Shown in pieces: positions 3,571-51,262 of a DNA stretch of 64,000 nt. The notes under the pieces are model-generated. The model saw only the letters and a program-made list of their open reading frames with translations, had not been told where the DNA came from and did no database searches. Made by a program: the position numbers and the translations under genes. Source of the stretch: an uncultured Candidatus Saccharibacteria bacterium (lineage in GTDB: Bacteria; Patescibacteriota; Minisyncoccia; Phycocordibacterales; UBA918); contig CAYOAM010000001.1 in assembly GCA_964402035.1 (NCBI GenBank), positions 371,558 to 435,557 of the forward strand. The letters are read 5' to 3'. How positions within the stretch are numbered: the stretch's first letter is position 1; each line of letters begins with the position of its first letter.

Positions 3571-4194
3571 CTATGGGCGGTTTGGATTGCCCTCATCTGC
3601 AAGGCGCCAGAGGTACCATGACGCGACCGAGCAGTATGGGTGCCAGTCTTTCGCAAGCTTTTGCATCTTTTTATCATCCGGCAATGCGCGAAGTTTAAAA
3701 AGTTTCTGAAAGCCTTTTTTAATTCCTAAATCAAGTGTCGGCAGCACATTGGTGCGTCCCAGGGTAAACATCAAAAACATATCGGCAGTCCATACACCGA
3801 TCCCCTTCACCGCTATCAAGTGCTCTCGTATCTCTTCATCCGTCATCTCGGTGAATTTGTCGGGAGTGATAAACCCTTCATTAAACTTGCGAGCGAGATC
3901 GTAGAGATAGTCTGTCTTTTGATTTGAAAGTCCACATTTTCGCAAGGTCTCACGACGCTTTTTCAAAAGTGCTTGCGGCACAGGTTTTTGATCCGGAAAG
4001 AGTGCGACAAAGCGTCCGTGGATCGTACCCGCTGCTTTCCCTGAAAGCTGCTGGTAGATAATGGACCGGCAGAGCGCCTCATACGGATCACCATTTTTTC
4101 CAATATCTGGTTTTGGATGACGAGCAGTAACTGCCGCAAGCGCAGTATCTTTTCGCAAGTGTCGTAGTCCACGGGCAAACTCTTTTGTGCTCAT
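3571..4194 (-). CDS. alkA: DNA-3-methyladenine glycosylase II / HhH-GPD family base-excision glycosylase (AlkA-like)
   Basis: Helix-hairpin-helix Gly/Pro-rich loop region (VKGIGVWTADMFLMFTLGRTNVLPTLDLGIKKG). Size matches the AlkA core. Confidence 0.75.
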   Translation of the reverse strand: MSTKEFARGLRHLRKDTALAAVTARHPKPDIGKNGDPYEALCRSIIYQQLSGKAAGTIHGRFVALFPDQKPVPQALLKKRRETLRKCGLSNQKTDYLYDLARKFNEGFITPDKFTEMTDEEIREHLIAVKGIGVWTADMFLMFTLGRTNVLPTLDLGIKKGFQKLFKLRALPDDKKMQKLAKDWHPYCSVASWYLWRLADEGNPNRP

Positions 4195-4856: not shown

Positions 4857-5501
4857 TCAAGAGCAGGCTTGGATAATGTACTGAGCTCGACTGAGCTCGG
4901 CCTTGTACAAAGCAGCTCTGGAGCGTCTATTCGGCAAATTGAGTAACACAAGGCCGACAACCGACAGGCCGACCACACTCCACCATGGTGGAGTACCGTT
5001 CAGGAAGTAAAATACTCCGGCGTTTACCAAAATCCCAAGACAGCACAACGAAAGCAGTTGTGGAGTCCGTAGCAATACCCTATTCCATGCACGCTCCTTA
5101 AGTGCACTAGCACGCAGTATTGCGGTTAACACCTCAAAATAGCGAATCCCGCGAATGCCAGTCAATGTATAGACATCTTGCGCACCGCAGACTCGTACAT
5201 GAAAGACATGCCCGTTCAGTTCTTTCTGCAACAAGTGGTAACCATCATCGACATCCATGTAGCATAATTTCCACTCGCCATGTAGGAATGCTTGCATGAC
5301 CGCACCAAAATCCACTTGGCTCGGTCGAGTGGCTTCGTGCCGAAATAACACTTCAAAATCAGCCGAGATTATGATTTGTTTAGAAGCAGAAAGCTCTTCG
5401 GTGACGTTTTTAATTGATGCAGAAACGCGCACTGGTGCAAGCGTCATAACTTCCTCCACTGAGCGACGTAACCCAAACGGGATGCCTGGGGTGTCGCTCA
5501 A
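4857..5501 (-). CDS. hypothetical membrane protein (two C-terminal TM helices)
   Basis: 214-aa ORF. Hydrophobic segments LLSLCCLGILVNAGVFYFL and WWSVVGLSVVGLVLL. Confidence 0.4.
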   Translation of the reverse strand: MSDTPGIPFGLRRSVEEVMTLAPVRVSASIKNVTEELSASKQIIISADFEVLFRHEATRPSQVDFGAVMQAFLHGEWKLCYMDVDDGYHLLQKELNGHVFHVRVCGAQDVYTLTGIRGIRYFEVLTAILRASALKERAWNRVLLRTPQLLSLCCLGILVNAGVFYFLNGTPPWWSVVGLSVVGLVLLNLPNRRSRAALYKAELSRAQYIIQACS

Positions 5502-5619: not shown

Positions 5620-6807
5620 ATGGAACATATCCTCACCATAAACGCAGGTTCTTCGAGTATAAAATTTGGCCTATTTGAGGCAGGCACTGAACCCAAGAAA
5701 ATTTTGTGGGGTTGCATGGAAAATATCGGCCTTGAACACACCACATTTTCTATACAAAGTGCCGAAACTGAGTCACCGCAACCGCAACCGGTGGATGCCG
5801 CAAATCTTTCGATCGCTCTCCCGATCTTTATCTCGCTACTCAAAGAGCATCTTGCACCGTACACGATTGTTGCTATTGGTCACCGCATCGTACATGGCGG
5901 TGCAACACACGCCGCATCGATAGTGATTACACCTACCGTCATAGAGGATATACGGCAGCTCACCCATTTCGCACCGAACCACCTCCCTGCTGAAATCGCG
6001 CTTATTGAAGCACTGCAACAGACATTTCCACACGTACCACAAGTGGCGTGTTTTGATACTGCATTTCATCATGACCTACCACGCAAAGCGCAGATCATCC
6101 CTATTCCCCGCTCACATGAATCAAAAGGTCTTCGTGCGTATGGTTTCCATGGAATTTCCTATCAGTTTTTGATGCAGCGCCTCCATGAAATAGGAGGCGC
6201 TGCAGTAGCAGAGAGTCGCGTAGTCCTCGCACACCTGGGAAATGGTGCCAGTCTCGCGGCTGTGAGCAAGGGAGCTGTGGTCGACACTACTATGGGTTTT
6301 TCGCCCGCCTCAGGCATACCCATGAGCACCCGCTCCGGTAGCATCGACCCCGGTATCGTCAACTACTTTCTCGAAACAGAAAAAATGTCAGCGCAAGACT
6401 TGAGCACGCTCCTCACCGAACGTTCTGGGCTCCTTGGTATGTCGGAGACGAGCGCGGATATGCGCCAGCTGTTAGACCAAGAAGCAACGGACATACGCTC
6501 AAGAGAAGCGATAGATGTATTTTGCTACCACATACAAAAAACCATCGGCGCATATGCCGCAGCCATGGGAGGCATCGACACCTTAGTATTTAGTGGCGGT
6601 ATCGGTATGCGAGCGCCAAAAGTGCGAAGTCGCATCTGTGAAAACCTTGTCTTTCTTGGTATCGCTATTGATGCAGAAAAAAATAATGCGGGGGCATTGG
6701 TTATTTCTGTAGCTGATAAACCCGTAACGATATACGTCATCGCAACCGATGAGGAACACATGATTGCAAGCGACACAGCACGTATTTATGCCGCATCAAG
6801 CCAGTAA
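5620..6807 (+). CDS. ackA: acetate kinase
   Basis: N-terminal ILTINAGSSSIKF(G) signature. ~395 aa. Immediately upstream of the phosphoketolase gene. Confidence 0.9.
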   Translation: MEHILTINAGSSSIKFGLFEAGTEPKKILWGCMENIGLEHTTFSIQSAETESPQPQPVDAANLSIALPIFISLLKEHLAPYTIVAIGHRIVHGGATHAASIVITPTVIEDIRQLTHFAPNHLPAEIALIEALQQTFPHVPQVACFDTAFHHDLPRKAQIIPIPRSHESKGLRAYGFHGISYQFLMQRLHEIGGAAVAESRVVLAHLGNGASLAAVSKGAVVDTTMGFSPASGIPMSTRSGSIDPGIVNYFLETEKMSAQDLSTLLTERSGLLGMSETSADMRQLLDQEATDIRSREAIDVFCYHIQKTIGAYAAAMGGIDTLVFSGGIGMRAPKVRSRICENLVFLGIAIDAEKNNAGALVISVADKPVTIYVIATDEEHMIASDTARIYAASSQ

Positions 6808-6825
6808 TATATTAAAAACCAATTT

Positions 6826-9210
6826 ATGCAAACCACACACAACACACTGTCAGACGAAATGCTCGCACGCATCGACGCATATTGGCGCGCCGCAAACTTT
6901 CTCTCCGTTGGACAAATTTACCTGAAAGAAAACCCTCTACTCAAGGAGCCTCTCAAACTAGAGCACATAAAACCAATCCTACTCGGGCATTGGGGAACAA
7001 CACCTGGTCAAAACTTTATCTATGCGCACCTCAATCGCATCATAAAAAAGTATCACCTCAACACGATTTACATATCGGGACCCGGACATGGTGGCCCCGC
7101 ACTTGTTGCGAACACCTACCTTGAAGGCACCTATAGCGAAATCTATCCAAACATTAGCCAAAATGAGGCCGGCATGAAACGGCTCTTTCAGCGTTTTTCA
7201 TTTCCCGGTGGTATTGCAAGTCACGTGTCGCCTGAGTGTCCTGGCTCCATACATGAGGGCGGAGAGCTCGGATACTCCTTGAGCCATGCCTTTGGTGCAG
7301 CATTTGATAACCCCGATCTCGTCGTTGCGTGTGTCGTGGGTGACGGCGAAGCAGAGACCGGGCCGCTGGCAACCGCATGGCACTCAAACAAATTTCTAAA
7401 TCCTGCAACAGACGGCGTCGTGCTCCCCATTTTGCATCTCAATGGTTACAAGATTGCGAACCCAACAATCCTCGCTCGTATTTCACACGATGAACTCGAG
7501 CAACTATTCCGCGGCTATGGATGGACCCCGTATTTTGTTGAAGGAGATGACCCACAGTACATGCACCAGCAAATGGCAGCAACACTGGATACTATTACGG
7601 AGGAAATCCAAGAGATCCATCGAAAGGCACGCGAAGAAGGAAGTACCGAACGACCACGCTGGCCCATGATCGTACTACGATCACCTAAAGGGTGGACAGG
7701 GCCAAAAGTGGTCGGTGGAAAACTAAACGAGAATACGTTCCGTGCGCACCAAGTGCCACTCTCCGATCTTCCCAACAAACCTGAAAATTTGATCCAACTT
7801 GAGGAGTGGCTCAAAAGCTACCGTCCAGAAGAGCTGTTTGATGTTGACGGTCGACTGATACCTGAACTCGCTGAACTAGCCCCAACAGGCGATCGTCGCA
7901 TGGGAGCGAACCCTCACGCCAATGGTGGCGGGCTTCTTCGCGACCTCCAAATGCCTGACTTCCGTGACTATGCAGTCGATGTACCCGCGCCGGGTGTTGT
8001 AAAAAAGGGAGACACTCACGTGATGGGCGTATTCCTCCGCGATGTGACGAAACTCAATGAGTCACAAAAAAACTTTCGTATTTTTGGACCCGATGAAACA
8101 CTTTCAAATGGTCTCGAGTCAGTATTTGAAGTCACGAACAGACAATGGATGGGCAACCGTATGGACGCAGATGAATTTCTATCGCCCAATGGTCGCGTCA
8201 TGGAAATGCTATCAGAGCATCAGTGTCAGGGCTGGCTTGAAGGATATCTCTTGACCGGTAGACACGGTCTCTACAACTGTTATGAAGCGTTCATTCACAT
8301 AGTGGACTCGATGTTCAATCAGCACGCCAAGTGGCTCAAGATTACGTCAGAGCTTCCATGGCGCCACAAAATTGCTTCACTCAACTACCTGCTAGCGTCA
8401 CATGTGTGGCGCCAGGACCACAATGGTTTTACGCACCAAGACCCCGGCTTTATTGACCATGTGGTCAATAAGAAATCAGAAATTATTCGTGTGTACCTAC
8501 CACCGGATGCAAACTGTCTCCTCTCGGTCACTGATCACTGTTTGCGTAGCCGTCACTACGTCAACGTGGTCGTTGCAGGCAAGCACCCTGCCCCACAATG
8601 GCTCAATATTGATGCAGCCATAAAGCACTGCACCGAGGGCATCAGTATCTGGCAATGGGCAAGCAATGATCAAGAGAGCGAGCCGGACATAGTCATGGCC
8701 TGCGCAGGTGATGTACCGACACTTGAAACATTGGCCGCAGTGACGATTCTCCGAGAACACGTACCGAATCTAAAAGTTCGTGTTGTAAACGTGGTTGACC
8801 TTATGAAACTCCAACCACAAGAAGAGCATCCACACGGGCTCAATGAAAAAGATTTTGAATCTATTTTTACCAAAGACAAACCAGTGATTTTTGCTTTCCA
8901 TGGATATCCTATGTTGATACATCGACTCACGTATCGACGTGCAAATCACCGAAACATCCATGCACGCGGGTACAAAGAAGAAGGTACCATCACAACCGCA
9001 TTTGACATGACAGTACTCAATGATCTCGACCGTTTTCATTTGGTCCAAGATGCGATCGAGCGACTACCGCAGCTTGGCACTAAAGGGGACTACCTAAAAC
9101 AAATGATGCAGGATAAACTTGTCGAGCATAAACAGTACATCAAAGAGCATGGCGAAGATATGCCCGAGATACGCGACTGGAAATGGTATGTTGCGGATGC
9201 ACAGCAATAG
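6826..9210 (+). CDS. xfp: xylulose-5-phosphate/fructose-6-phosphate phosphoketolase
   Basis: 794 aa. [18 protein letters not shown] signature and the TPP-binding region GDGEAETG. Canonical ack-xfp pairing. Confidence 0.9.
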
Positions 9211-14110: not shown

Positions 14111-14794
14111 CTAAGTCTCTAAATATTCCTTTAAACGCTCTTCTCCCAACGGGTGATCACCTTTGGGTATTCTAAAACTCTCCCTTAACTCTCTCCAATG
14201 GTTTTTATTTAGTATCCAATTAATGCAAAATACAATAAGCAAGCCAATGAGTCCACCCAACATAGCTAGGGCCATATCTTTTTGGGCATCCCATATATCT
14301 CCCTGACTCCCTAAAAATGCCAACCCGACCGCAGGATCAACACTGCGAGCAGCGGCCCATTCTATGATTTCATACAGAGCTGAAGATGCTCCTACAAGAT
14401 CGAGTGGGAAGTAGTACGACCAAAACCCCTTGACACGCGATATACGTATGAAGACTTCTCGCATAGGATATACCAGAAGCAGACCAAAGCTAAAATGTAC
14501 CAATCGGTCATACATATTTCGGTCAGAACCAAACCAGTCTTGCAGCGTAAAGCCAAAAGGCACACTCGAATACGTGTAATGAGATCCAATAACGTGCAGT
14601 ACCATAAAGAGCGTAATCAGCGTATACGAAATATTTGAAAGCCGAAAATACCGCCCCAGCACAAGTAGGAATGGTACAAAACCAAAAACTAAGTAATTCT
14701 CCAACAGCCAATCGTGCGGATACAACGGGTTAATCGCTGCCCAAATCCACGCAACGACAAAAATAATAAGGAGAGATATCTTGTACATGCTCAC
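14111..14794 (-). CDS. membrane protein, YjdF/DUF2238-like
   Basis: 227 aa, multi-TM. The segments HVIGSHYTYSSVPF and NMYDRLVHFSFG resemble the DUF2238 family. Confidence 0.45.
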   Translation of the reverse strand: MSMYKISLLIIFVVAWIWAAINPLYPHDWLLENYLVFGFVPFLLVLGRYFRLSNISYTLITLFMVLHVIGSHYTYSSVPFGFTLQDWFGSDRNMYDRLVHFSFGLLLVYPMREVFIRISRVKGFWSYYFPLDLVGASSALYEIIEWAAARSVDPAVGLAFLGSQGDIWDAQKDMALAMLGGLIGLLIVFCINWILNKNHWRELRESFRIPKGDHPLGEERLKEYLET

Positions 14795-14978
14795 CCATAA
14801 AGCATATCAGGACACGGAGACTGAATTGTGTGTTGTACACAAATGCTGCTGCGTTTTATAAAATAAACCGGGCAGCCCACCACCTCTGTCTCCTTTTGTT
14901 TTTGAGCTAAATTTGGTATAACAGACGAGCAGATTTACTGCCTGCTTTAAAGTAAGTGAAGTGGTAAATCTAACCGGT

Positions 14979-15167
14979 CTCCCCTTCACAGGGGCAGTAC
15001 ACCTTCAGGATTTTTTGTCTCCCTTCGGTCACAAAAAACCTCTGAAGGTCCCAAAACAGTCCCCCGGACTTTTTCTCCCTACGGGAGCAGTACACCTTGC
15101 TGCTACTTTTGTTGCTTCGCACAAAAGATACCTATCAAGGTCCCAAAACAGTCCCCCGGACTTTTTT
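14979..15167 (+). repeat. tandem direct repeat of two ~95-nt units, each ending in a terminator-like hairpin plus T-run, immediately upstream of tRNA-Glu
   Basis: The units share ...c(c/t)cc(t)-hairpin-gcagtacacctt...aaggtcccaaaacagtcccccggacttttt. The 3' hairpin agtcc-ccc-ggact is followed by TTTTT. Confidence 0.6.
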
Positions 15168-15239
15168 GGCCCTATCGTCTAACGGTTAGGACGGAGCCTT
15201 CTCAAGGCTCAAATCAGGGTTCGATTCCCTGTAGGGTCA
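15168..15239 (+). tRNA. tRNA-Glu (anticodon CUC)
   Basis: Cloverleaf fits. Acceptor GGCCCTA/TAGGGTC, D-arm GTCT..GGAC, anticodon stem GAGCC/GGCTC with loop TTCTCAA, T-arm CAGGG-TTCGATT-CCCTG, discriminator A. CCA is not encoded. Confidence 0.8.
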
Positions 15240-15261
15240 TGGTTTAAGTTTACTTCACAAA

Positions 15262-15290
15262 AGAGCACTATTTCAGTGCTCTTTTGTGTT
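15262..15290 (+). terminator. rho-independent terminator after tRNA-Glu
   Basis: Hairpin aaagagcact-atttc-agtgctctttt followed by a T-rich tail. Confidence 0.55.
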
Positions 15291-15729
15291 TAGTAAACTC
15301 ACCATGACCCTAAGCAGGCAACCTATGTTGCCTGCGTCGGGGAATCGAAGCGGCGCAGTATATCGCAAAGCGATACGAGCCGCCGTCCAGAAGTCTTAGT
15401 ATTTTAAATATTTTAGTATTTAAAATACTAAGAACTTCGGGGACGATCCAGAACCGGCAAGAGTCCTTACGGGACCCGTTTAGGTTGTATGATATTTTTT
15501 TCAAAAATAATCGACAACCTCTTGAGAAGCTACATGTATTCGCTTCTCAACCCTGTAGGGTCACCATTGACAGCTAGCACTAATAGGTTTGTAATGAATG
15601 CATTTAGAGCTAGCTGTAGAAGCATACGAAATCCCCTAAATTGATTAGGGGATTTCGTATGCTTCAAGATAAATCACTTTTGCAAGAGTTTTTCGGTCCG
15701 CGCCATACTGAATCAGTTATACTTGGATA

Positions 15730-16359
15730 ATGTTTGAACGAAACTCTTTAAGTGACAAGATATTATTTTTAAAATTTGGACTTTTAAATCTCATCTTATT
15801 TTTACTAGTCTATGTTCCAACTAATAATTTACCCCATGAAACATACTTTCAACCATATTTTCTCTGGGAACTTCAGACACAACGAATAGACTGGATGATA
15901 ATTCCATACCATAGTTTCAACTTACTCTTTCTCATCCCTTTGTTTCTCCTCAGAGGCAGACATATCAAAATACTTGGAGTATCATTTTTTTTAACCACTG
16001 TAATCGCGGGGCTCTTCTTTATAATATTTCCCACCCAACTTGGTTTTGTGAGAATAGTTCCTGAAGGTTTCTTCACCTTTTTTTACGAGCATCTATACAA
16101 GTTGGATAATACGACAAATCTTGTTCCTTCATTGCATGTTACGTATGTAACACTTTATTTTATATCTTGTGTACCATTCTTGAAGAGAAAGCTTTCTAAA
16201 ATGTTATTCACTCTATTTACTCTGACAATTATAAGTTCAACATTCTTTACACATCAGCATCATATAGTTGATATAGTATCTGGGATCCTCTTAGCTTCTT
16301 CTGTCTACTGGTTTGTCAGCTATAAATTATTTCAGGAAAATTCTCAACATCTGCAATAA
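15730..16359 (+). CDS. PAP2-superfamily membrane phosphatase-like protein
   Basis: 209 aa, multi-TM. PSLH (resembling the PSGH motif) and HQHHIVDIVSG (matching the SRxxxxxHxxxD third motif) suggest an acid phosphatase/PAP2 fold. Confidence 0.45.
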   Translation: MFERNSLSDKILFLKFGLLNLILFLLVYVPTNNLPHETYFQPYFLWELQTQRIDWMIIPYHSFNLLFLIPLFLLRGRHIKILGVSFFLTTVIAGLFFIIFPTQLGFVRIVPEGFFTFFYEHLYKLDNTTNLVPSLHVTYVTLYFISCVPFLKRKLSKMLFTLFTLTIISSTFFTHQHHIVDIVSGILLASSVYWFVSYKLFQENSQHLQ

Positions 16360-17251
16360 CAGCAGGGGCCTTTTCGAAATTTGGTCGCATACCCCACCAG
16401 AGACTCAACCATCGTTTGAAATATGAATATTGTGGGACTGTATGATATTTAGGGTTAGACAACTCTGTCCAAGGAAGAAATGGGAACTTATGGTGTGCAT
16501 GATCCCACTGTCCATTCAAGAGTACTGCACCATGTATCTTACTTACAGAAAGATCTGAAGCTCCTTCAACTACATTTCTTGGTGTCCATGCATGAGTAAC
16601 ATATTGACGCGTTGCCCAATTAATACCAAAGCAAGCGTAAACAATCAAAACACTTTGCCACTGTAAGGAAAGAATATTCCACATTACGATCCATAGGGTG
16701 ATAGTAAAAATAATCTCAAGCCGTACTTTTGTAATAACCTTTCCTTTAAATTCGTTAAATAAGATACTTGAGAATGGCGATTGTCTAAAAGGTTTAGTCT
16801 TAAAGAACCAAGGTGCTATTGCCATCAGTAGATTTCCGAGTGGTACTAATGGGTAATATATGCCGGTGAGTATCCCGTACCATTGAATGTTTTTTGTAAT
16901 CTTATTATCATTGGGATAATAGTAATCGAAGAGTTCATGATCCGTCCTATTTCCCCGATGATGCATTCGATGAGCAATCTCGAACATGGTGAAGGATTTT
17001 GGAAATAAGCTGTGACAAAGTACTCCGAGGATATAATTCATCTTTTTCGATTTATGGAGTACGTGATGTACCGATTCGTGCATAAGTGCATAATTCGTAA
17101 GTAGCACAAACGAAAATAATATTCCTATCGGAATCGACCAAATAAGCTCAAGACGCGAACCTAACCAAAGCAAGCCAAATGCTCCAATTTGAATCAGAAC
17201 AACGAGTAGTAGGTTGAGTCTACTAGGTAATTTAATCGTTGTAATTTTCAT
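16316..17251 (-). CDS. membrane fatty-acid desaturase/hydroxylase superfamily protein (three His boxes)
   Basis: His boxes HESVHH, HRMHH and HAHH with multi-TM spacing typical of di-iron desaturases/hydroxylases. OlsE-type lipid hydroxylases share this fold. Confidence 0.8.
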   Translation of the reverse strand: MKITTIKLPSRLNLLLVVLIQIGAFGLLWLGSRLELIWSIPIGILFSFVLLTNYALMHESVHHVLHKSKKMNYILGVLCHSLFPKSFTMFEIAHRMHHRGNRTDHELFDYYYPNDNKITKNIQWYGILTGIYYPLVPLGNLLMAIAPWFFKTKPFRQSPFSSILFNEFKGKVITKVRLEIIFTITLWIVMWNILSLQWQSVLIVYACFGINWATRQYVTHAWTPRNVVEGASDLSVSKIHGAVLLNGQWDHAHHKFPFLPWTELSNPKYHTVPQYSYFKRWLSLWWGMRPNFEKAPAVIADVENFPEIIYS

Positions 17252-17259
17252 TTGTGACT

Positions 17260-17931
17260 CTACGATTTACTTCTGCGGAAAAATCTAAATGCAATGAAAC
17301 CAAGAATGAGACCAAGTGCCACTCCACCTAAAGCAAAATACTTATTCCATGACTGAGCACTTGTGAGAAGCGGGTTATCGAACAGATTGCTTGTAAATTG
17401 TAAGGAGACAACTTTCCATGAACCATTCTCCTTAACTAGTGTAGTAGACCACTTTGATGTGACTTCCATTTCCATACCGGCTACAAAAGTATAGTGATCA
17501 ACTGCAGTTCCATATGCTATTGCCGTATCGCCGTAAAACTCAGTCAATTTGTCGGCAGTCACTTTTGTCTTTATACTCTTAAGGACGCCACCATTTTCAT
17601 TAAAAATCCTTTCTTGAAATGCTTTGACTTCAGCAACTCCATCAGCAACTTCTGCATTTTGGTAAATAATGTTCACATTTGGATCAAGGTACTTGATCAT
17701 GTCATCAAACCTACCCTCATTAATTGCCTTTTCCGCATCAATCAACATTGTTCTGAGAGCATTATGATCTGCGGTGCGGTCAGAAGTATCAACAGCAGAG
17801 GTGCTCGTTTGAGCAAATGTGGTGAGGCTAAAACTACCTGCTAAAATTAACCCTACCAGAAAAAAGAGTCCTTGTTTCATAAATTTAATTTGTATTATTA
17901 ATATAATGGCACATCTTATATATGATCCCAC
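17260..17931 (-). CDS. secreted/membrane-anchored hypothetical protein (NTF2/SnoaL-like fold suspected)
   Basis: A signal peptide starting at the internal Met (MKQGLFFLVGLILAGSFSLTTFA) and a C-terminal TM anchor. No catalytic motif recognised. Confidence 0.4.
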   Translation of the reverse strand: MGSYIRCAIILIIQIKFMKQGLFFLVGLILAGSFSLTTFAQTSTSAVDTSDRTADHNALRTMLIDAEKAINEGRFDDMIKYLDPNVNIIYQNAEVADGVAEVKAFQERIFNENGGVLKSIKTKVTADKLTEFYGDTAIAYGTAVDHYTFVAGMEMEVTSKWSTTLVKENGSWKVVSLQFTSNLFDNPLLTSAQSWNKYFALGGVALGLILGFIAFRFFRRSKS

Positions 17932-18820
17932 TCATATCACTTGTTCTGAGGAAATGGTCAACTCCCCACACGGGATACACCTCACCAGAGATGTGTATCA
18001 AATCCTTGAGAAGAATTATACCATCATTCGGACCTGATGGAGCAAGTGTTTTATATCTTTTTACAAGAAATGGTTCTACATGTGAAAGTAGTGGGAACCC
18101 AACGATATGAACTACTTTAATATGTGAATCTAGAAGCATTTCTTTTTGCAAAGACTTGTTCCTGCACGCAATTTGATCTGTGACAGCATAATCAATCCTC
18201 AAGACTTTCAGCGTTAAGTACCAAATTATTTTCGTCAAAAAAGTACGAAGTTTTTTATCTGCGTGGGGTGTTCCGTTGATTAGACCACCAATACTGATCC
18301 ATCCTTTAATATTTTTTGCAAGATTTTTACCTCGTAATTCTTCAAGCGCTAAACGAACTTCTGTAGAACCTTTACTTAAAGAGACAAGCCAAACATTGTT
18401 ATGCTGGTTATCACGGAGTTTACTTAAGATGATTTCTTTATTATCTAAAACTGACCCTCGACTAAGCACTTCAACAGTCTCTGTTTCGAATCCAAATTTC
18501 TCTGCAATATTTCTGACCAATAATCCGTCCCCGCCAATATCACCATGTTCTTTATAGAACATGCCCGGTATTATAATTATTTTCGTCGGTTGATTAGGTG
18601 CTGATAGTGACGTGGAGAAATTATTAATAGTGGCAATAAAGTTCTTGTGTTTCATGAGTAAATACTTATACAGCATTGCTGTCGCCTGATCAGTACCATG
18701 CGCAGAAGTCACTTCGTCTACTTTTTCAAGTATCAGGTCACTAGTAAAAACAACTGATGTCTTTTTAAACAGTTCAATTTCATCTATAAGCGGTGAATTA
18801 CGGACAATCCCTCTTTTCAT
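17885..18820 (-). CDS. hypothetical protein, possible alpha/beta-hydrolase-like
   Basis: 311-aa ORF. A weak nucleophile-elbow-like segment LVSLSKGS. No confident family assignment. Confidence 0.35.
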   Translation of the reverse strand: MKRGIVRNSPLIDEIELFKKTSVVFTSDLILEKVDEVTSAHGTDQATAMLYKYLLMKHKNFIATINNFSTSLSAPNQPTKIIIIPGMFYKEHGDIGGDGLLVRNIAEKFGFETETVEVLSRGSVLDNKEIILSKLRDNQHNNVWLVSLSKGSTEVRLALEELRGKNLAKNIKGWISIGGLINGTPHADKKLRTFLTKIIWYLTLKVLRIDYAVTDQIACRNKSLQKEMLLDSHIKVVHIVGFPLLSHVEPFLVKRYKTLAPSGPNDGIILLKDLIHISGEVYPVWGVDHFLRTSDMSGIIYKMCHYINNTN

Positions 18821-18822
18821 AA

Positions 18823-19782
18823 TTATTTATTCATTGGGTATCGAGGCAACTTGTCCCAATAATTCCAAAAATCAACTGCAGAAGCATCTTCTATCGTAAG
18901 AATGCCCTTTTTCGGTTTCATATTCTTTTGTATAGGAAAATCGGGTTTAAGAAAAGAGAAACTCATGAATCTCAAAAATGATAATCTTGGTTTCTCAATT
19001 ATTCGCAGAAATGAGGTTCGGGATTCTTTAGGAAGAGCGACAACAAAATAAAGTGTTGTCGTTTTATTTCCTTCGTTTGGGAGGAGTGCAAGAAAAGCAC
19101 AGTGCCCTGTAATCTTGTTATGAACCATAATAAGATTACCACCGTAATAATCCAATTGAATATTTGACTTAAGTAAACCAAGAAATTTTATTATGTAGTC
19201 ATACCACCTTCTAACAATAAGACCAATTTCAAGGCTAATGCCAATATGAAATATATTCTGACTAAACACAGTATGACTAAACACAGTACGATTATGGACA
19301 TTATAAAAATGCCATGTATCAAAACCATTAAGGCTAACTGCCAGATACGGGTTTTGCAACTGATGCACCAACGGCATTGAATATGCCGGATTTGCTATTT
19401 CAGTAAATTGCGGAATTTCGAAAAGAGGTTTTTCTCCCCAAAATATGAACACGAGACCATACCTTTCCTCCACAAAAAGTCTGCCTGTTACAACTTGTGA
19501 GGGCTTAAGATTTGAGGGTGGCATTTTTGTGCATTCTCCATCTGCATTAAACTGCCATTCATGAAGTGGGCAAGCAATGCAATTGTCCTTAACCGTCCCA
19601 TTTGCAAGGTCGGTTCCCATGTGAGGACAAAACCTGCTCACCATACCGAGTTTTCCATCACCACCTCTAAATAGAAGCCAATCTGTTCCGTTAAACAAGA
19701 TCGGCTTAAGCTGTTTTCTCTTGATTTCACGTGATAAACAGATTGGGTACCATGATTGAGGTAAGGAGAATTGTTCTGCCAT
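18823..19782 (-). CDS. Rieske [2Fe-2S] domain non-heme iron oxygenase-like protein
   Basis: Rieske motifs CPHMG...(17 aa)...CPLHEW at the N-terminus. ~320 aa matches the oxygenase alpha-subunit-like (PaO/KshA-like) architecture. Confidence 0.75.
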   Translation of the reverse strand: MAEQFSLPQSWYPICLSREIKRKQLKPILFNGTDWLLFRGGDGKLGMVSRFCPHMGTDLANGTVKDNCIACPLHEWQFNADGECTKMPPSNLKPSQVVTGRLFVEERYGLVFIFWGEKPLFEIPQFTEIANPAYSMPLVHQLQNPYLAVSLNGFDTWHFYNVHNRTVFSHTVFSQNIFHIGISLEIGLIVRRWYDYIIKFLGLLKSNIQLDYYGGNLIMVHNKITGHCAFLALLPNEGNKTTTLYFVVALPKESRTSFLRIIEKPRLSFLRFMSFSFLKPDFPIQKNMKPKKGILTIEDASAVDFWNYWDKLPRYPMNK

Positions 19783-26694: not shown

Positions 26695-27423
26695 CTAGTG
26701 TGAAAAGAAAGCCTCAGTATAGATTTGTTCCTCACGGATATTTGCATTTATTAATCCATTCCACATATCTCTCACAAAGTGTATGGAACCACAGATAAAA
26801 TACTCATCGTTACTTGATCCATCCCCTCTGCAATTAACCTCCTCAACAATTAGAGCGGGGGACATCCTGCCTTTTCTGTATGTACCTGAGACAATATCAT
26901 CTTTGGTGATAAAAAAAGTTGCTTGGATGTTAGAATTTTTCTCTACTATTTCTTCCAGTTCGCCTTTAAAGAGGATTGATTCAATAAATGAATTACTGTA
27001 AAAAAGTTCTATTTTTCTTTCTACATTATTTTTTAGAAAATGCCCAAGCATACTCATGATTGGTGTAATACCAATCCCTGCAATAATAAAAATAAGTCTT
27101 GTTTCATTGTTTTCAGTATAAAAATAACCGTAGGGATCAGACGCTTCTATAGTGTCTCCAGCATTTAAATTAGATAGATGCTTAGAAAATTCCCCCATTT
27201 CTTTAACTGTAATAGCGAGAAAGTTGTCTTGAGGCGCACTTGAAATACTGTATGATTTTCCCTCGGTAATAGATGGATCCTGAAGAAAAATATTTATGTA
27301 TTGACCAGGGATGAAAGCAGGGACAGATGATTCTGTTTGTGTGACTAGTTGAATGGTAACCACGTCATCCAGCTCTCTTTTCTTGTCAATCACTTTATAG
27401 GTTCTCTTACTTGTCTGATGCAT
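26695..27423 (-). CDS. FAD/NAD(P)-binding oxidoreductase, ferredoxin-NADP reductase-like
   Basis: FAD-binding RxYS-type motif (KSYSISS) after a beta-barrel segment (GQYINIF), then a Rossmann-like GxGxxP (IIAGIGITPIMSM). Confidence 0.6.
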   Translation of the reverse strand: MHQTSKRTYKVIDKKRELDDVVTIQLVTQTESSVPAFIPGQYINIFLQDPSITEGKSYSISSAPQDNFLAITVKEMGEFSKHLSNLNAGDTIEASDPYGYFYTENNETRLIFIIAGIGITPIMSMLGHFLKNNVERKIELFYSNSFIESILFKGELEEIVEKNSNIQATFFITKDDIVSGTYRKGRMSPALIVEEVNCRGDGSSNDEYFICGSIHFVRDMWNGLINANIREEQIYTEAFFSH

Positions 27424-46386: not shown

Positions 46387-47013
46387 TTAACGTTGTATGG
46401 GTAGCGCAAGTGAAAGATGCTCAAGCAACATCTTTACCGATGATCCTCGAGCGAGAAAATGCCGCGAAACCACCGCAAGATCCCTAAGCACCGCGGTATG
46501 CATGGACGCATGAAAGATTTCTTCAAGCGAAGAAATGAGTTCACCACACCACGCCATATCCTTTGCCTTATGCCGACGAGCTATTTCTTCAAATCGTTGT
46601 GCATATGACAGCGCCAAAAAATCGGATGCCACGCGATGCTCTATTCGTGTATGCAAAAGACGGACCACTTCAAAACGAGAACGTAACGTAGGGAGGATGC
46701 GATCATCGCGGTCGATCGAAAGCACAAATGCACTCGTCAGCGGAGGATCTTCAAAAAGTTTCAAAAGTGCGTTCTGCGCCTCATGTGTGACGTTGTCAGT
46801 ACGGATAACAAATACGCGATACGGCCTAACTACGGGTCGCTGATACGCGTACTGTTGCAGTGCCCGCACTTCCTCAATGCCAAATACCGTATAAACAAAC
46901 GCTTGGTAGTCAGGATTTCCTACCGTATCCTCGTCCACTATGCCATGCAGACTTGATGCCTTTTGTTGGGCAGCTTCCCAGGATCCTACAAGTAGATATG
47001 CATGATGCGCCAT
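46387..47013 (-). CDS. holB: DNA polymerase III delta-prime-like clamp-loader subunit (short)
   Basis: HAYLLVG start, sensor motif EAQNALLKLFEDPP (matching AANALLKTLEEPP), and SRC-like LRSRF. No Walker A, as expected for delta-prime. Confidence 0.55.
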   Translation of the reverse strand: MAHHAYLLVGSWEAAQQKASSLHGIVDEDTVGNPDYQAFVYTVFGIEEVRALQQYAYQRPVVRPYRVFVIRTDNVTHEAQNALLKLFEDPPLTSAFVLSIDRDDRILPTLRSRFEVVRLLHTRIEHRVASDFLALSYAQRFEEIARRHKAKDMAWCGELISSLEEIFHASMHTAVLRDLAVVSRHFLARGSSVKMLLEHLSLALPIQR

Positions 47014-47042
47014 ACACTAGCAGTATACCGTCACCAAAGCAG

Positions 47043-48479
47043 TTACGCAGCTTGCTGCATACCAGCCATCACAACACGACGCACAAAATGTTCAACAAGC
47101 TCACGTTCAATCGGCAGTAGTTTGTATGCATCGCGCCACGCTCGCAGATTTTCACCGACATTATTAAACGTCTCAGGACGGATTTCTTTTGGAATAGTGC
47201 CATCATTATGGAGCAAGTCTTCAATCATGATATGTCGTACCGCAATCCAATCGGGATGCTGCGTGCCCGACTGCCCACCGATGCCGAGGAAACCTGTGGT
47301 ACCTAACCAACGCGTAAGCAAATCATTGAGACCTTTTGTCACCTCAGGGGCCAACAGCGGATCGATCGGTGTACTTTCTCTGAGCACTGCAGCATTTGCA
47401 TCACCCACATTCTTTTGCTTTTCAGTTAGAATGCTCCCTGCGGTCACTACACCAGAAGCAGGAGCACGGGGCACTGCTACTGGTGCAGACGGAACAGCAT
47501 CTGGTCTTGGAATTGATGGCGTCGTCACCGCTTCATTACTCTGTTTATTGATCACGATGTCGAGTGGTGCATCGACATGCTTACTGGTGCCATAATTGGT
47601 CGGCGCAGAAACATCGACTGGTGGAGGTGGAGGGACAGCAGCCTCCACAACTGGCTTAGTGAGAATTGAGACACGCGCTTTCAGAACGGCAGGCGGAGGG
47701 ACGGATGCTGCTGCCGATGGAGGAGTGGTTTCTGGCTTCGGCACATGACTATCTTTTCCCACAACCATACGTACTGATTCCGCTTGTTTTTTCAAACCCT
47801 CCAAACGCTGCTCTAAAGCAGGTATATCAATACCTGCAGTTATTGATGCAAGTGCCGCTCGAATCTCAAGCAACTCTTTTACATACTCGCGATACCCAGT
47901 CGTCGTATCATTGAGCCACTGAAATGCTCTTCCACGTCCAAATGCAATGAGCTCATCGTTTGTCTTTTCGAGCCGAGTGCGCAAGGCCTGTATTGCAGTA
48001 TCCACTCCTGTGCCCGCCGAAGTTTCCGACACTGCTACTACGGGTTCGGCTTGAGGTACTGGCACGGGCGCTGAAGTAACCGAAGCCGCAACGGGTGCTC
48101 CAAAATCAGGTCCTCGCTTTCGCGGAGCAGAAACGACCGCATCTACAGACGATCGTGCGGGGTCGACTGACTGGACTTCTATCTTTTTTGATACGACAAC
48201 AGGAGCAGGTGCGTCAGGTGTAGTAGGCGCAGATGCAGGTTGTGTGGCTGGAAGCGCTGCCACAGGAACAAGAAAGTGGGCAAGCGTTTTTAATTGTGCG
48301 TCAACATGAGCAGGAGTTCCACCTCCTCGCGCAAGCTGCATAAGTTCATCACGAAGTGTATTGTACGCCGCACGCTCAACATCATTAAAAGAAGCAGATG
48401 CTTTCTGAAGCGTCACAAACATACGCGCACGATCGGCAGCATTTTTTATATCAAAATTCTGAGGAGCATTTCCGTTCAT
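47043..48479 (-). CDS. hypothetical protein with a long Pro/Ala/Val-rich low-complexity linker
   Basis: 478 aa. A structured N-terminal ~110 aa, a >200-aa P/A/V-rich region (PPPPVDVSAPTNY...) and a C-terminal ~120-aa domain. No signal peptide seen. Confidence 0.5.
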   Translation of the reverse strand: MNGNAPQNFDIKNAADRARMFVTLQKASASFNDVERAAYNTLRDELMQLARGGGTPAHVDAQLKTLAHFLVPVAALPATQPASAPTTPDAPAPVVVSKKIEVQSVDPARSSVDAVVSAPRKRGPDFGAPVAASVTSAPVPVPQAEPVVAVSETSAGTGVDTAIQALRTRLEKTNDELIAFGRGRAFQWLNDTTTGYREYVKELLEIRAALASITAGIDIPALEQRLEGLKKQAESVRMVVGKDSHVPKPETTPPSAAASVPPPAVLKARVSILTKPVVEAAVPPPPPVDVSAPTNYGTSKHVDAPLDIVINKQSNEAVTTPSIPRPDAVPSAPVAVPRAPASGVVTAGSILTEKQKNVGDANAAVLRESTPIDPLLAPEVTKGLNDLLTRWLGTTGFLGIGGQSGTQHPDWIAVRHIMIEDLLHNDGTIPKEIRPETFNNVGENLRAWRDAYKLLPIERELVEHFVRRVVMAGMQQAA

Positions 48480-48523
48480 ACGATACCACTACTATAGCAT
48501 CACCCAAATCGGCAACCGAGATG

Positions 48524-51262
48524 TCATCGTTGATAACGTGCTTGAATATCATTTTCAATAGCAGCTCGTTCTTTTCCGTACCGCACGTACGACGCGTTCA
48601 TGAGCGCCTCAATACGGTGAGCGTCACCAACAACAGGAGGAAATGTAGCGATGGAAAATGGTTTTGCCGGCACTCCCTCGACCAACATGCGTACGTATGC
48701 ATGTCTGTTTTCTATGTGCATCAAATCATGCGCTTTAAACTCTGGTGCAAATTGCTTTTCCAAAAATTCAGCGTCAGCAGAACCGACACGAAACGCACAG
48801 ATTGAACCCACGTTGCCAAAAACCGCATCACGAATTTTTTCATCTATTTGCGCTATAAACTGGTGTGCTATTGTGAGCCCAAGCTTGTATTTGCGCGCCT
48901 CAGAGAGAATCGATGCGATCGAGTTTGTGGTGATATTTTGAAACTCATCGATGTGGAGATAAAACGGTGCGTAGTCGCCCGATCGATCATCGACGCGTGA
49001 GAGCGCAGCCATGAGTATTTTTCCGACAATGATCATACCGATGAGGTTCGCATTGATTTCTCCCAAACGCCCCTTGGAGAGATTTACCAATAAAATTTTC
49101 TTACTGTCCATCACTTCACGCATATTAAATGCAGATGTTTGTTGACCAATGATCGGACGCATAAAATCGTTTGCGGTAAAGATATCAAACTTGGAGGTGA
49201 TATACGGCACCATATTTTCAAGCGCAGCATCTCCGCCGGCCTTGGTCGCAATTTCTTTCCAAAACTGGATGACGACGGGATTTGTCGCTTTGCTCAATTT
49301 GAGACGACGAAATTCGGCATCAGCCATGACGCGAGAGACATCGAGCAAAGTTGAACCACTTTGAGGATCATCAAGGACGAGCATGGTGGCGTTTCTAAAA
49401 TACTGTTCAAATATCGGACCCATTGATTCCGGTACCGCGCCATACAATTTTTGAAAAATTGAAAAAAGTTCGTTGACAACAAACGTTTTCTGCTCGGGAA
49501 ATTGCGGATCGTACTCGAGCATGTTGAGTCCGAGCACATGTTCCGTGTGCGCAGGATCAAAATAGATAATATCTTTTTCTCGCTCAGGGGGAACAGCAGC
49601 CAATACATCTGCAATATCGGTACCGTGTGGGTCAATAAAGCACACGCCTGCCCCATTTTTCATGTCGTCAATCACCATGTTTTTGAGCAATACCGATTTT
49701 CCCGTACCGGTCTGCCCCACGACATAAAAATGTCGCAGACGATCTTGTGGCGAAATATAAATATCAGTTTCTTTGCCACGATGTGAATTTTTTCCAATGC
49801 GCGTCCCTTGCTGCGGCATTACGATCGGTGCGGGAGCAGTTTTTGCTTGCACCTGTTTAAATTGTGGCGCAAGTTCATTGCTACCACGCGGTATATGGAT
49901 GAGTGTTGCAATTTCGCGCTCAGACAGTGGCAGTGCATACTCGTCTGCAAACTCACGAAATGAGAATCGTTGTAGTTCGCGCGTGCTCGTCCGACCCTTG
50001 AGCGTAGAAAAAGAAATACTATTTCCCATGGTGTGTTCAAACTGATTGAACGCCGCCTCTATTTCATGGACGAGCTGCTGCGCACGTGCTTCTTCCTTTG
50101 CTGAAATAGCGATACGTATCACCACCTCATGAATGGGTCGTTCAATCTTCTTTTGAAACAATTCGAGTTTCTCTTGCGGTATATCGTGCTTCTCTTTCTC
50201 CTCTTCTTTTTTCTTTGAGCTAAACAATTCATCCTGCACAAAGTGTAGGACGCTACCAAACATGGTCGACTGCTCTATCGCCTTGTCAACCGAGGTACCT
50301 TTCCGCACTTTTTTTATAATATCCTCGTACTTTTTTTGATAATCAAATGGACGAGGACGCACTAGTATCTGGAGCGATGCTCCGCCTCCCTCGCGTTCTA
50401 TTTTTGAAAACGCATTCAAGAGAACTCGCAATGGGTCATGGTCAAATGTATCGTACGTCCGTATCGGATAAATCGGAAACTTCTTGAGCTTCGCCACTGA
50501 GACGAGCGAAATTCCACCTTCAGAAAAAATATTGTAGTCATTTTTCTCTTCAGTCAAAACGGCATGTGGAAAAAGTGAGAGTAGCTGTTTTTCAAAAAGG
50601 TCAATGTACTGCGTTGGTACCGCCATATAAAAAACAATGTCGTCACTCTTGTCGGAGACCGCAATTTCGAGCGAATAATGAAAGTGCTGTTTGCGATCAC
50701 CCTTGCCAATGGTCTGGAGTCCCGCAAACAATTGCTCCATCGCCGATATGATAGCCGTCAATTCTTGCGCTTCTTCTTTTTCATCGGGAGATTCTGGGAG
50801 CGACACCGAAAACAATGTCATATGGAGAATATTCCACTCAGGTGCTCCGTCTTTGAAATTTGCAACATGCTTGCCGGTGCGGATATGCGCTACGAGTGCG
50901 CGATGCGCCTCATCGATAATAAATGAGTTTCGTGTTCGCTCAAGCACCGAAAGCGCATTGCGGATACCATAGTCTTCGGCAAGATGTATAACTTCCTCAA
51001 CCTTGTTGCGCGCCACGCTAACCTGCTCTGCAAGTCCGACCGTGAGTGCTGGCGAGAGTCTGCGATCCTCGGGCAAGACGGCGCTCGGTTCATGTTCACC
51101 ATATTCACGCAAAGCGGCCTTGCCCAAGGTCTCATAGTCTGCCGTATCGCCATTCCCTTGCCGCTCCATCATTGTACGTTCACGCTTTGCTATTTCTGCG
51201 CGCAAATACGCAATCTCTGCTTCAGGAGACCCAAAACTCTTCGGTTGTGGCCGCTCACTCAT
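48524..51262 (-). CDS. HerA/FtsK/VirB4-superfamily ATPase (DUF87-like), 912 aa with a large unknown N-terminal region
   Basis: Walker A GQTGTGKSVLLKN is followed by FIDPHGT (HerA/VirB4 DPHGE-like). Walker B YLHIDEFQNI. Arginine-finger segment EARKYKLGLTIAHQ (matching EGRKYGVGL). Confidence 0.7.
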   Translation of the reverse strand: MSERPQPKSFGSPEAEIAYLRAEIAKRERTMMERQGNGDTADYETLGKAALREYGEHEPSAVLPEDRRLSPALTVGLAEQVSVARNKVEEVIHLAEDYGIRNALSVLERTRNSFIIDEAHRALVAHIRTGKHVANFKDGAPEWNILHMTLFSVSLPESPDEKEEAQELTAIISAMEQLFAGLQTIGKGDRKQHFHYSLEIAVSDKSDDIVFYMAVPTQYIDLFEKQLLSLFPHAVLTEEKNDYNIFSEGGISLVSVAKLKKFPIYPIRTYDTFDHDPLRVLLNAFSKIEREGGGASLQILVRPRPFDYQKKYEDIIKKVRKGTSVDKAIEQSTMFGSVLHFVQDELFSSKKKEEEKEKHDIPQEKLELFQKKIERPIHEVVIRIAISAKEEARAQQLVHEIEAAFNQFEHTMGNSISFSTLKGRTSTRELQRFSFREFADEYALPLSEREIATLIHIPRGSNELAPQFKQVQAKTAPAPIVMPQQGTRIGKNSHRGKETDIYISPQDRLRHFYVVGQTGTGKSVLLKNMVIDDMKNGAGVCFIDPHGTDIADVLAAVPPEREKDIIYFDPAHTEHVLGLNMLEYDPQFPEQKTFVVNELFSIFQKLYGAVPESMGPIFEQYFRNATMLVLDDPQSGSTLLDVSRVMADAEFRRLKLSKATNPVVIQFWKEIATKAGGDAALENMVPYITSKFDIFTANDFMRPIIGQQTSAFNMREVMDSKKILLVNLSKGRLGEINANLIGMIIVGKILMAALSRVDDRSGDYAPFYLHIDEFQNITTNSIASILSEARKYKLGLTIAHQFIAQIDEKIRDAVFGNVGSICAFRVGSADAEFLEKQFAPEFKAHDLMHIENRHAYVRMLVEGVPAKPFSIATFPPVVGDAHRIEALMNASYVRYGKERAAIENDIQARYQR

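Follow-up and report, generated by a model that had tools for sequence, protein, structure and literature searches.

Around a tRNA-Glu gene in a 64,000-nucleotide stretch of contig CAYOAM010000001.1 (hereafter the window), two similar units lie in tandem directly upstream and partial copies of the tRNA's own 3′ end lie downstream. An earlier note on this DNA read the downstream copies as the attachment-site (att) scar of an integrase-mediated insertion and suggested that the genes beyond them form an island anchored at the tRNA. Judged by sequence comparison, the repeats around tRNA-Glu instead belong to one family of small, gene-less structured modules, each about 90-115 nt long and built from three hairpins, A, B and C, of which the window holds four copies. 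Three of the four copies in the 64-kb window are matched by a covariance model, R1 (two type-1 modules and one type-2 unit), and the fourth, unit 2 of the tandem pair, is assigned by its similarity to unit 1. The features at the tRNA-Glu locus are as follows.

14981-15074, plus strand: type-2 module, unit 1 (R1 match, homologues, covariation)
15075-15167, plus strand: type-2 module, unit 2 (similarity to unit 1; repeat scan and type-2 alignment)
15168-15239, plus strand: tRNA-Glu(CUC), called by ARAGORN and by Rfam (RF00005, 62 bits), with calls at 15167/8-15239/40
15227-15239, plus strand: first copy of the repeat, inside the intact tRNA (3′ strand of the T-stem, 3′ strand of the acceptor stem and discriminator base)
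15247-15299, plus strand: terminator-like palindrome after the tRNA (core 15256-15269 / 15275-15288, a 14-bp perfect stem, with a T-rich tail)
15301-15349, minus strand: inverted tRNA-Glu copy, diverged, made up of the T-loop, the 3′ strands of the T-stem and acceptor stem, and the trailer (repeat scan)
15350-15462, no strand assigned: spacer with conserved blocks (stem GCGGCG...CCGCCG, then GTCCAG)
15463-15550, plus strand: type-1 module (R1 76.5 bits, E = 2.7e-18; fold z-score -3.45)
15551-15566, plus strand: second repeat copy (the tRNA 3′ end repeated exactly over 13 nt, 15551-15563, then CCA)

The arrangement upstream of tRNA-Glu is borne out as first described. The two units of about 93 nt stand head to tail with a start-to-start spacing of 92-93 nt, and the 3′ end of unit 2 abuts base 1 of the tRNA. 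In unit 1, hairpin A (CCCC/GGGG, 14981-14994) is followed by the linker CAGTAC, hairpin B (ACCTTCAG...CTGAAGGT, 15001-15049), CCC, and hairpin C (AAAACAGTCC-CCC-GGACTTTTT, 15053-15074). Hairpin A of unit 2 reads CTCCC-TAC-GGGAG, and its stems A and B carry compensating changes relative to unit 1. The final 30 nt of the units are 100% identical, and GCAGTACACCTT occurs exactly twice, compared with an expectation of 0.23. Tandem Repeats Finder did not report the pair because the unit interiors have diverged, with compensating changes in the stems. In an independent assembly of the same organism (locus L002, contig SRR7369912_60671; L numbers denote loci outside the window), the contig breaks inside the tandem type-2 units, at its first 30 bases.

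Downstream, the tRNA-Glu gene encodes no CCA and is followed directly by TGG. Its final 13 nt, CCCTGTAGGGTCA, are found exactly at 15227-15239 and again at 15551-15563, where about 0.002 occurrences of a given exact 13-mer would be expected by chance in 64 kb (our estimate). The direct copy with its CCA is as originally reported. The first copy begins directly after the T-loop sequence TTCGATT, and the first base of the second is the base right after the type-1 module. That module comprises hairpin A (GTCC-TTACG-GGAC), CCGTTT, hairpin B (15482-15520), CTTG, hairpin C (GAGAAGC...GCTTCTC) and CAA. The inverted copy, read on the minus strand, consists of TTCGATTCCCCGAC, a 22-nt hairpin and TTAGGGTCATGGT; it does exist, but only 12 nt are exact (15232-15243 / 15301-15312) rather than the 18 first proposed, and these form part of the longer diverged copy. 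The spacer also holds a perfect 17-bp hairpin that is rich in AT (15394-15433) and, at 15441-15451, a diverged block resembling a T-arm, GGGGACGATCC. Thus the order over 15240-15566 is palindrome, inverted copy, stem-loop block, T-arm-like block, type-1 module and exact 13-nt copy.

The CCA at 15564-15566 is a separate curiosity. Neither of the two tRNA genes of the window encodes CCA, and the copies equivalent to the second repeat copy in L053, L012 and L022 are without it. It is either a chance occurrence (1 in 64) or a hint that the displaced copy was derived from RNA. Between this copy and the PAP2 gene lies a perfect 21-bp hairpin (15619-15665, GAAGCATACGAAATCCCCTAA / TTAGGGGATTTCGTATGCTTC) with a 5-nt loop and no T-run after it on either strand.

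The same composite follows tRNA-Glu in L053 and tRNA-His in L012. The palindrome sits at the same position in both loci, the inverted tRNA-copy feature is present in both, and GGAATCGAAC...ACGA..CC together with the T-arm-like block is conserved in three of three genomes (three-way alignment A4). The copied segments carry the sequence of each local tRNA, and L053 shows no synteny with the window on either side of the tRNA. The prospect that relatives might share the arrangement, which had been named as a refutation of the att reading in favour of an ancestral structured region, is partly realized: the composite is shared, each time with the sequence of its own tRNA. The 311-bp segment between the repeats holds no credible gene, its two overlapping short open reading frames (ORFs) being mechanical calls, and a search of 14700-15900 with Rfam at E<=10 found only tRNA and nothing else relevant. 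The alternatives of a small non-autonomous insertion or a structured non-coding RNA, which had been offered beside the att scar, come close to what is seen, a gene-less segment with conserved hairpins.

A second type-1 module lies in the window near a tRNA-Asn gene, in the opposite orientation.

59574-59598, minus strand: 25-nt exact copy of tRNA-Asn (bases 1-23 and 2 upstream bases; original at 59736-59760)
59599-59690, minus strand: type-1 module (R1 102 bits, E = 5.5e-25)
59690-59704, minus strand: diverged copy (13 of 15 bases match) that covers the anticodon stem region of tRNA-Asn and the first 5 intron bases, directly 5′ of hairpin A
59738-60066, plus strand: tRNA-Asn(GUU) with a group I intron (exons 59738-59771 and 60029-60066, read from the sequence)

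This module is antisense, about 48 nt upstream of tRNA-Asn, and shows the same three hairpins as the module at 15463-15550. The 25-nt tRNA copy begins right after its end, ...TCTCA. The tRNA-end copies thus accompany a recurrent structured module, and what is copied may be a tRNA 5′ end, in antisense, or a 3′ end. Rfam at E<=1 reported nothing relevant over 59540-59740. The intron is 257 nt long, interrupts the anticodon loop and is matched by RF00028 (88.1 bits at 59762-60021); the 5′ exon ends in U and the intron in G, and ARAGORN made no call for the split tRNA. Modules occupy the syntenic position upstream of tRNA-Asn in the window, L029 and L035, with protein identities of 42-72%. The copies match their own tRNA over 25/25 bases in the window, 27/29 in L035 and, in L029, 17/19 before the sequence becomes unrelated.

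Modules flank intron-containing tRNAs in three places, the window, L008 and L052; in the latter two, group I introns adjoin the modules at 4876-5065 and 6579-6770, respectively, probably inside a tRNA-Met. A further observation concerns tRNA promoters. Boxes of the TACAAT/GTACA type, resembling -10 elements, lie 0-9 nt upstream of the first tRNA base in the window (59721-59737), L026, L039 and L016, which suggests that tRNA transcripts in these genomes have very short leaders or none.

When collections were queried with a 25-base pattern taken from the two type-1 copies of the window, 63 loci were recovered from species-representative genomes and 78 from metagenome contigs. All 63 genome loci are in metagenome-assembled genomes (MAGs) of the candidate phyla radiation (CPR)/Patescibacteria, often several per MAG. 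The matches span several class- or phylum-level lineages (Saccharibacteria, Paceibacterota, Kaiserbacteria, Minisyncoccia and Nomurabacteria). Viral contigs gave no match to the pattern, and phage and plasmid records gave none either. R1, which was built from type-1 copies only, finds 98 copies in 435 kb of CPR loci, with up to 6-7 per MAG. No family in Rfam 15 covers the modules in the window or in 40 CPR loci, and only tRNA and the group I intron pass the gathering threshold in the window. We found no description of the family in Rfam 15 or in the literature searched on CPR repeats, miniature inverted-repeat transposable elements (MITEs) and non-coding RNAs, and literal searches for the motif strings returned only unrelated primer matches.

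Type-1 modules share a common plan in an alignment of 64 sequences (A2): hairpin A, the linker CTGTTC, hairpin B, CTTG, hairpin C and TCAC. In hairpin A, a stem of 4 variable base pairs (4-5 bp over the whole family) carries a loop of the TTACA type. Hairpin B has a variable interior above the base AGGTTGTATGA...TCGACAACCT, whose invariance in A2 was imposed by the search pattern, as that of the other conserved features was not. Compensatory changes support the pairing: each pair of hairpin A has 26-33 double ones, and covariation extends to the interior of hairpin B. Hairpin C is 9.3 bp long on average, occurs with 37 different arm sequences, and has a mean folding energy of -10.4 kcal/mol compared with -2.8 for shuffled sequences. 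In some modules (L015, reverse complement ~6990-7070; L019, 6846-6930; L042, reverse complement ~3650-3720; and L051), the hairpin C region carries an extra stretch of about 60 nt with a Shine-Dalgarno-like AAGGAG and a mini-ORF of 5-8 codons (MKIKVLLW*, MKIEVLLW*, MEVLK* or MGMLQ*).

The tandem units are a diverged subtype of the same module, and not a separate feature, since the model built from type-1 copies alone scores tandem unit 1 over its full length (14973-15085, 23.1 bits, E = 3.3e-4). Type-2 units are present in 8 further CPR loci and follow the same order of three hairpins, with CAGTAC as the linker after A and the bases at the foot of B swapped for their complements (ACCTT/AAGGT). 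An alignment of 9 type-2 sequences shows covariation in helices A and B, and several type-2 units finish CTTG-hairpin-TCAC, as type 1 does. Across the family, the base of hairpin B is thus AGGTTG/CAACCT or ACCTT/AAGGT, the linker between A and B is CTGTTC or CAGTAC, and B is followed by CTTG or CC. In L013, a type-2 unit with the core CAGTACACCTT adjoins a type-1 module.

The L013 unit also bears on the description of the window units as terminator-like. The sequence AGTCC-CCC-GGACT followed by T5-6 does fit the terminator pattern, once in each unit. However, these ends sit directly upstream of tRNA-Glu with no promoter in between, and in L013 the corresponding bases pair with an A-run and so make up the 3′ arm of hairpin C, a 10-bp stem. 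The terminator reading of the T-runs in the window is therefore ambiguous.

The modules are not randomly placed. Among 69 modules, 28 lie within 300 nt of a tRNA called by ARAGORN, compared with 6.6 +/- 2.2 for random placement in the same loci. Modules are also found at 5S rRNA ends and at the 3′ end of fusA, the latter in 6-8 genomes in syntenic positions. Some are preceded by a motif resembling the 5′ start of 23S rRNA, although Rfam did not annotate 23S there. Of 147 hairpin C ends, 45 adjoin a convergent gene at its 3′ end and 23 a gene start. Guanosine triphosphatases (GTPases) of the EF-G/EF-Tu family are the commonest neighbour proteins; others, identified by reading (N-terminal) sequences, include ribosomal proteins S2 and L10, Obg and a formyltransferase.

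No gene family that could mobilize the modules recurs beside them. ORF clustering in 63 and then 141 loci, together with Pfam searches of 140 neighbour ORFs, revealed no recurrent transposase, integrase, reverse transcriptase or Cas family, and tnpA and tnpB are not among the recurrent neighbours. A search for partner genes over 141 loci (about 0.9 Mb of flanks) returned housekeeping genes only. In the window itself, the 29 ORFs scanned with Pfam hold no recombinase, cas or tns domain. Elsewhere in the window, genes for a 912-aa HerA/TraG-like NTPase, a 478-aa protein and a 208-aa protein are adjacent on the minus strand (46387-51262); the 478-aa protein has no Pfam match, and a homologue of the 912-aa protein (43% identity) adjoins a module in L014.

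The module ends have a marked relation to nearby target sequences. Of 116 testable modules, 20 have an exact repeat of 12 nt or more whose start lies no farther than 3 nt from the module end and which recurs within 500 nt upstream, compared with 1 of 110 in the control. With this family-wide excess and the exact 13-nt match at tRNA-Glu, the 3′-end copies exceed chance, a point on which the original description had made its own reading depend. About 83% of family members have no such anchored repeat; whether a repeat is present is therefore a matter of the target, and the module itself does not carry one by nature. Repeats and matches range from 7 to about 50 nt. In the cases at tRNA 3′ ends (tRNA-Glu in the window and L053, tRNA-His in L012 and tRNA-Cys in L022), the first copy begins at the same tRNA position, directly after the T-loop. 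In the cases at tRNA 5′ ends (tRNA-Asn in the window, L035, L039, L056 and L065), the copy begins at CTCTACCA in the D-arm and extends 0-4 nt beyond the first base of the tRNA. In five cases at tRNA 5′ ends, the module begins 37-42 bp past the matched segment, within an overall range of 7-220 bp. The copied targets also include the end of a 5S rRNA.

The general layout is an intact gene, a spacer and a partial copy of the target with the module in its middle. In many cases, a more diverged copy of the target's other half lies just 5′ of hairpin A, and outward of the right-hand copy the sequence is as a rule unrelated. For example, L054 holds an intact copy, CCACTGAACGAT|ACCCGCAC, and a second copy interrupted by a module exactly at that junction; its left part matches the intact copy at 12/12 bases and its right part at 33/33. 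The tRNA-Asn locus of the window, L026, L033, L028 and L013 likewise have a filled copy beside an intact one. The L013 module lies inside a tRNA-Lys pseudo-copy. That of L016 interrupts a tRNA-Gly copy in antisense, and Rfam reports this copy as a weak tRNA. In L054, a Saccharibacteria MAG, tRNA-Gly(CCC) is flanked over 6150-6870 by tandem arrays of its own partial copies: upstream are at least 3 copies of the tRNA 5′ 25 nt, each with a 50-nt hairpin spacer, and downstream are 5 copies of the T-arm-plus-acceptor 3′ part, with a module only in the outermost copy on each side.

These data speak directly to the original proposal that the two repeat copies are the attL and attR sites of an integrative element decayed to about 310 bp, with the adjacent 10-kb cluster perhaps its remainder. 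The 13-nt direct repeat does run from the T-loop to the tRNA 3′ end, which is the classical identity-block position for T-loop-type integrases. Fragments of tRNA genes are known products of integration (PMC9897764), and the L054 arrays contain partial tRNA copies without modules. Nevertheless, no integrase is present among the window ORFs scanned or recurs near family members, and the repeat begins at the conserved end of a module. The second copy is preceded by the module's own end, TTCTCAA, and the first by the T-loop TTCGATT, so that the crossover region is not shared; the same is true of the bases before the two copies in L012, L022 and L053. Furthermore, the same module sits at tRNA 5′ ends, 5S rRNA and protein-gene ends. 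As a general explanation, the att scar is refuted by the family-wide data, and for the tRNA-Glu locus we regard it as very improbable. The repeats that were linked to insertion are real, and their link to insertion probably holds, but not in the form of an att scar.

A further copy of the tRNA end that might bound a larger island was sought in the window and is absent; the sole near match has 2 mismatches, which is within chance (0.7 expected for a 13-mer with up to 2 mismatches). The genes for PAP2, a fatty-acid desaturase, a SnoaL-like protein, an unknown protein and a Rieske protein (15730-19782) have third-codon-position GC contents of 0.31-0.34, compared with 0.40-0.52 for the genes on both sides, so that the block differs from its surroundings in composition; this low value over 15.7-19.8 kb counts in favour of the att proposal. 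An FNR-like gene farther along (26695-27423) likewise has 0.31-0.34 among neighbours of 0.40-0.52. The closest database relatives (74-76% identity, in a neighbouring DUF2238 protein) are not syntenic at the tRNA-Glu locus; the best matches of that protein (76%) bear the name Patescibacteria, the group to which the organism of the window also belongs. The low-GC block may or may not be part of an island anchored at tRNA-Glu.

The exact copies permit another interpretation. The modules might be guide-RNA genes, in which the module is a scaffold and the 3′ tail after ...TCAC is a guide for a protein encoded elsewhere. Guided in this way, the protein would find the sequence match in the neighbouring gene (for tRNA, rRNA or a translation protein) and serve homing, insertion or regulation there, by a logic like that of the omega-RNA of TnpB or of the tRNA-homing CRISPR RNA (crRNA) of type V-K CRISPR transposons. 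In keeping with this idea, the copied segment is always exact and begins at the last base of the scaffold, whereas the segment on the other side decays. The copy also tracks the tRNA of its own genome (CCCTG in the window and CCCAG in L053, and likewise for tRNA-Asn in the window and L035). In the L024 array, spacers of 21 and 38 nt separate the three tandem modules. Elsewhere in the family, a hairpin-plus-T-run terminator comes after several of the tails, and the tail junction is also where new modules insert. The covariation in three helices is of the RNA type.

Against a guide function, the roughly 0.9 Mb of flanks yielded no associated protein, 83% of modules have no matching sequence nearby, and the match lengths are far from uniform. 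No clear conserved motif adjoins the targets, tandem modules are often without spacers (the window units, L044 and L067), and at fusA the supposed guide is merely the gene's own end. A guide beside its own essential target would also be self-destructive for a nuclease. On balance, we consider guide-RNA genes an improbable explanation. An elaboration of it, in which CPR bacteria maintain an orphan, dispersed repertoire of guide RNAs with no CRISPR array or linked nuclease gene, their partner being encoded once elsewhere, seems to us more doubtful still. The same low expectation attaches to its corollary that the guide would be programmable, with its sequence taken from the end of a tRNA, rRNA or translation gene, and would direct either homing and insertion of the module or binding to the locus.

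Several features of the family resemble the behaviour of insertion elements. In L042, a complete module is nested in the B loop of another, with a 7-nt repeat on its flanks, and a further module is joined into the loop of an older module's hairpin C. L044 differs from L102 by one extra (type-1) module, placed exactly between a type-2 module and the shared flank. Between L039 and L056, helices A and B are nearly the same, yet the hairpin C subtypes differ. The module beyond fusA lies in antisense across the final codons of the gene, with no duplication. Solo hairpin-C units are rare (about 3, compared with 54 full modules). Several left junctions end in ..CGAT, ..CGAA, ..TCGA or ..TTGAC, and the composition upstream of hairpin A shows no consensus except a shortage of G at -1.

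We favour insertion because the copy number, nesting, arrays, differing counts at syntenic loci, swapped hairpin C subtypes and placement at gene ends are typical of selfish insertions. Specifically, we consider the chances about even that the modules are non-autonomous insertion elements that survive at essential RNA genes only within a partial duplicate of the target. The sites observed are tRNA T-loop and D-arm junctions, the 5S rRNA end, the last fusA codons and hairpins within other modules. A cell would not survive an insertion into an essential tRNA gene present only once, and a module could persist there only inside a partial second copy beside the intact gene. Such a partial copy may be what was first described as the tRNA-Glu 3′ end recurring in direct and inverted form. 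The tandem units could have arisen by repeated insertion at one junction before tRNA base 1, as the pattern of L044 and L102 suggests. The enzyme responsible would act in trans, and the covarying hairpins may be the structure that it recognizes, as RNA or as single-stranded DNA.

Some observations fit this model poorly. Neither an autonomous relative with a transposase nor a candidate enzyme was found in the 141 loci, viral contigs, or phage and plasmid records. The modules have no terminal inverted repeats, the hairpin A end and the hairpin C-TCAC end being unrelated in alignment A2, and no target duplication of fixed length. The 3′-side target copy is exact from its first base and the 5′-side copy is diverged, a polarity that survivorship leaves unexplained, and 1-3 bases are missing at module junctions. 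No filled and empty pair from close genomes is at hand, the comparisons of L042 with L005 and L061 and of L071 with L131 being too diverged to define junctions, so that mobility is suggested by nesting, arrays and copy number. The synteny at tRNA-Asn, with a match to the own tRNA in two of three genomes, is explained by repeated insertion no better than by gene conversion or a function that is maintained. In addition, the near-identical unpaired motifs across CPR phyla could reflect a conserved host function. The polarity of the copies, the missing junction bases and the tRNA-Asn synteny thus keep both the guide-RNA explanation and a host function under consideration.

A host function could take the form of a cis-acting element, RNA or DNA, through which highly expressed genes are, for example, processed, stabilized, terminated or insulated, spread by local duplication and selection, with the tRNA copies as by-products. 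Modules do adjoin genes for tRNA, 5S rRNA, EF-G, S2, L10 and Obg, they keep syntenic positions over deep divergence (tRNA-Asn in 3 genomes, fusA in 6-8), and their structure is strongly conserved. Moreover, type-2 units finish in hairpin-plus-T-run motifs, and the C end of modules usually abuts a gene's 3′ end. However, the modules vary in orientation towards the neighbouring gene (sense at the 3′ side of tRNA-Glu, antisense at tRNA 5′ sides and fusA), which speaks against a cis-acting element. Nor does such an element readily accommodate modules nested in modules, the swapped hairpin C subtypes of L039 and L056, or copy numbers that differ between syntenic loci, and it leaves the exact target copies that start at the module end unexplained. 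We therefore give a host element a small, though not negligible, chance, and continue to favour non-autonomous insertion.

Four other mechanisms were considered and set aside. Simple target-site duplication is excluded by the diverged 5′ half-copy, the spacer between copies, the inversion of some copies and the modules, most of them, that have no repeat. RNA-level insertion, by reverse splicing into abundant RNAs, is incompatible with the many modules that are antisense to the target RNA. An attC-like integron site is rejected on account of the opposite order of the GTT/AAC boxes (hairpin B read against the attC consensus). Retroposition with 5′ truncation is unsupported, given the scarcity of solo hairpin-C units relative to full modules.

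CPR/Patescibacteria genomes are about 1 Mb in size and are thought to be streamlined, and abundant, deeply conserved structured non-coding modules at tRNA, rRNA and translation-factor genes are unexpected in such genomes. The modules explain partial tRNA copies and weak tRNA calls, such as the module-disrupted copy in L016, and may contribute to contig breaks, such as the end of L002 inside tandem units. If they are mobile, CPR bacteria should possess an unrecognized machinery for insertion. Should the exact target copies have a function, a new RNA-guided system might draw its guides from them. Under any of these interpretations, the family provides a testable handle, with a covariance model, about 140 loci and defined junctions.

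Comparison with known systems places the modules near several of them. Like tRNA att sites and tRNA fragments, they involve a partial tRNA-end copy as a direct repeat near the intact gene, the 3′ cases span the T-loop to the 3′ end, and arrays of partial copies occur (L054). Unlike those sites, they come without integrase or cargo, the repeat begins at the end of a 90-115-nt module, and the T-loop is not shared; their targets include antisense tRNA 5′ ends, a 5S rRNA end, fusA ends and other modules, and most are repeat-less. The likeness to tRNA att scars is superficial.

In type V-K CRISPR-associated transposons, known from cyanobacteria, a delocalised crRNA homes to tRNA genes. The modules likewise consist of a repeat-like structured element, after which comes a short stretch that a tRNA gene close by also contains, and the 37-42 bp spacing in five tRNA 5′ cases resembles the spacing reported there. 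In contrast, the modules have no tnsB, tnsC, tniQ, cas12k, transposon ends or cargo, the distances extend over 7-220 bp, and the hosts are CPR bacteria. They also differ from a CRISPR array in the length of the "repeats", about 100 nt, and in that some of their arrays have spacers and others do not. Retroposition of short and long interspersed nuclear elements (SINE/LINE), by target-primed reverse transcription, offers a similar mixture: the 3′ end of the module is conserved, its 5′ sequence is variable and the flanking repeats are 7-50 nt, yet no reverse transcriptase was found near modules, 3′-only copies are rare and most copies lack repeats.

Small repeats such as REP/BIME, ERIC, Correia, RUP and BOX elements and MITEs are short, multi-copy, non-coding hairpin elements that need an enzyme in trans. 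The modules resemble them in that they nest, form arrays and sit mostly in intergenic regions near gene 3′ ends, and they resemble MITEs in having many similar copies dispersed through a genome. They differ in lacking terminal inverted repeats and fixed-length duplications, in having three RNA-like covarying helices, in their enrichment at tRNA, rRNA and translation genes with partial target copies, and in their restriction to CPR MAGs (63 genome matches). IS200/IS605 elements have hairpins near both termini and usually no target duplication, and in IS605 the flanking DNA serves as a guide. Similarly, the modules have hairpins at or near both ends, and, as with the omega-RNA of TnpB, the structured scaffold is directly followed by flanking DNA; unlike these elements, they have no TnpA or TnpB gene found with them, no clear conserved left motif and no Rfam match, and they occur in both orientations in one window. 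Although they fall outside the definitions of these systems, the modules appear to work most like small structured repeats or IS200/IS605-derived elements.

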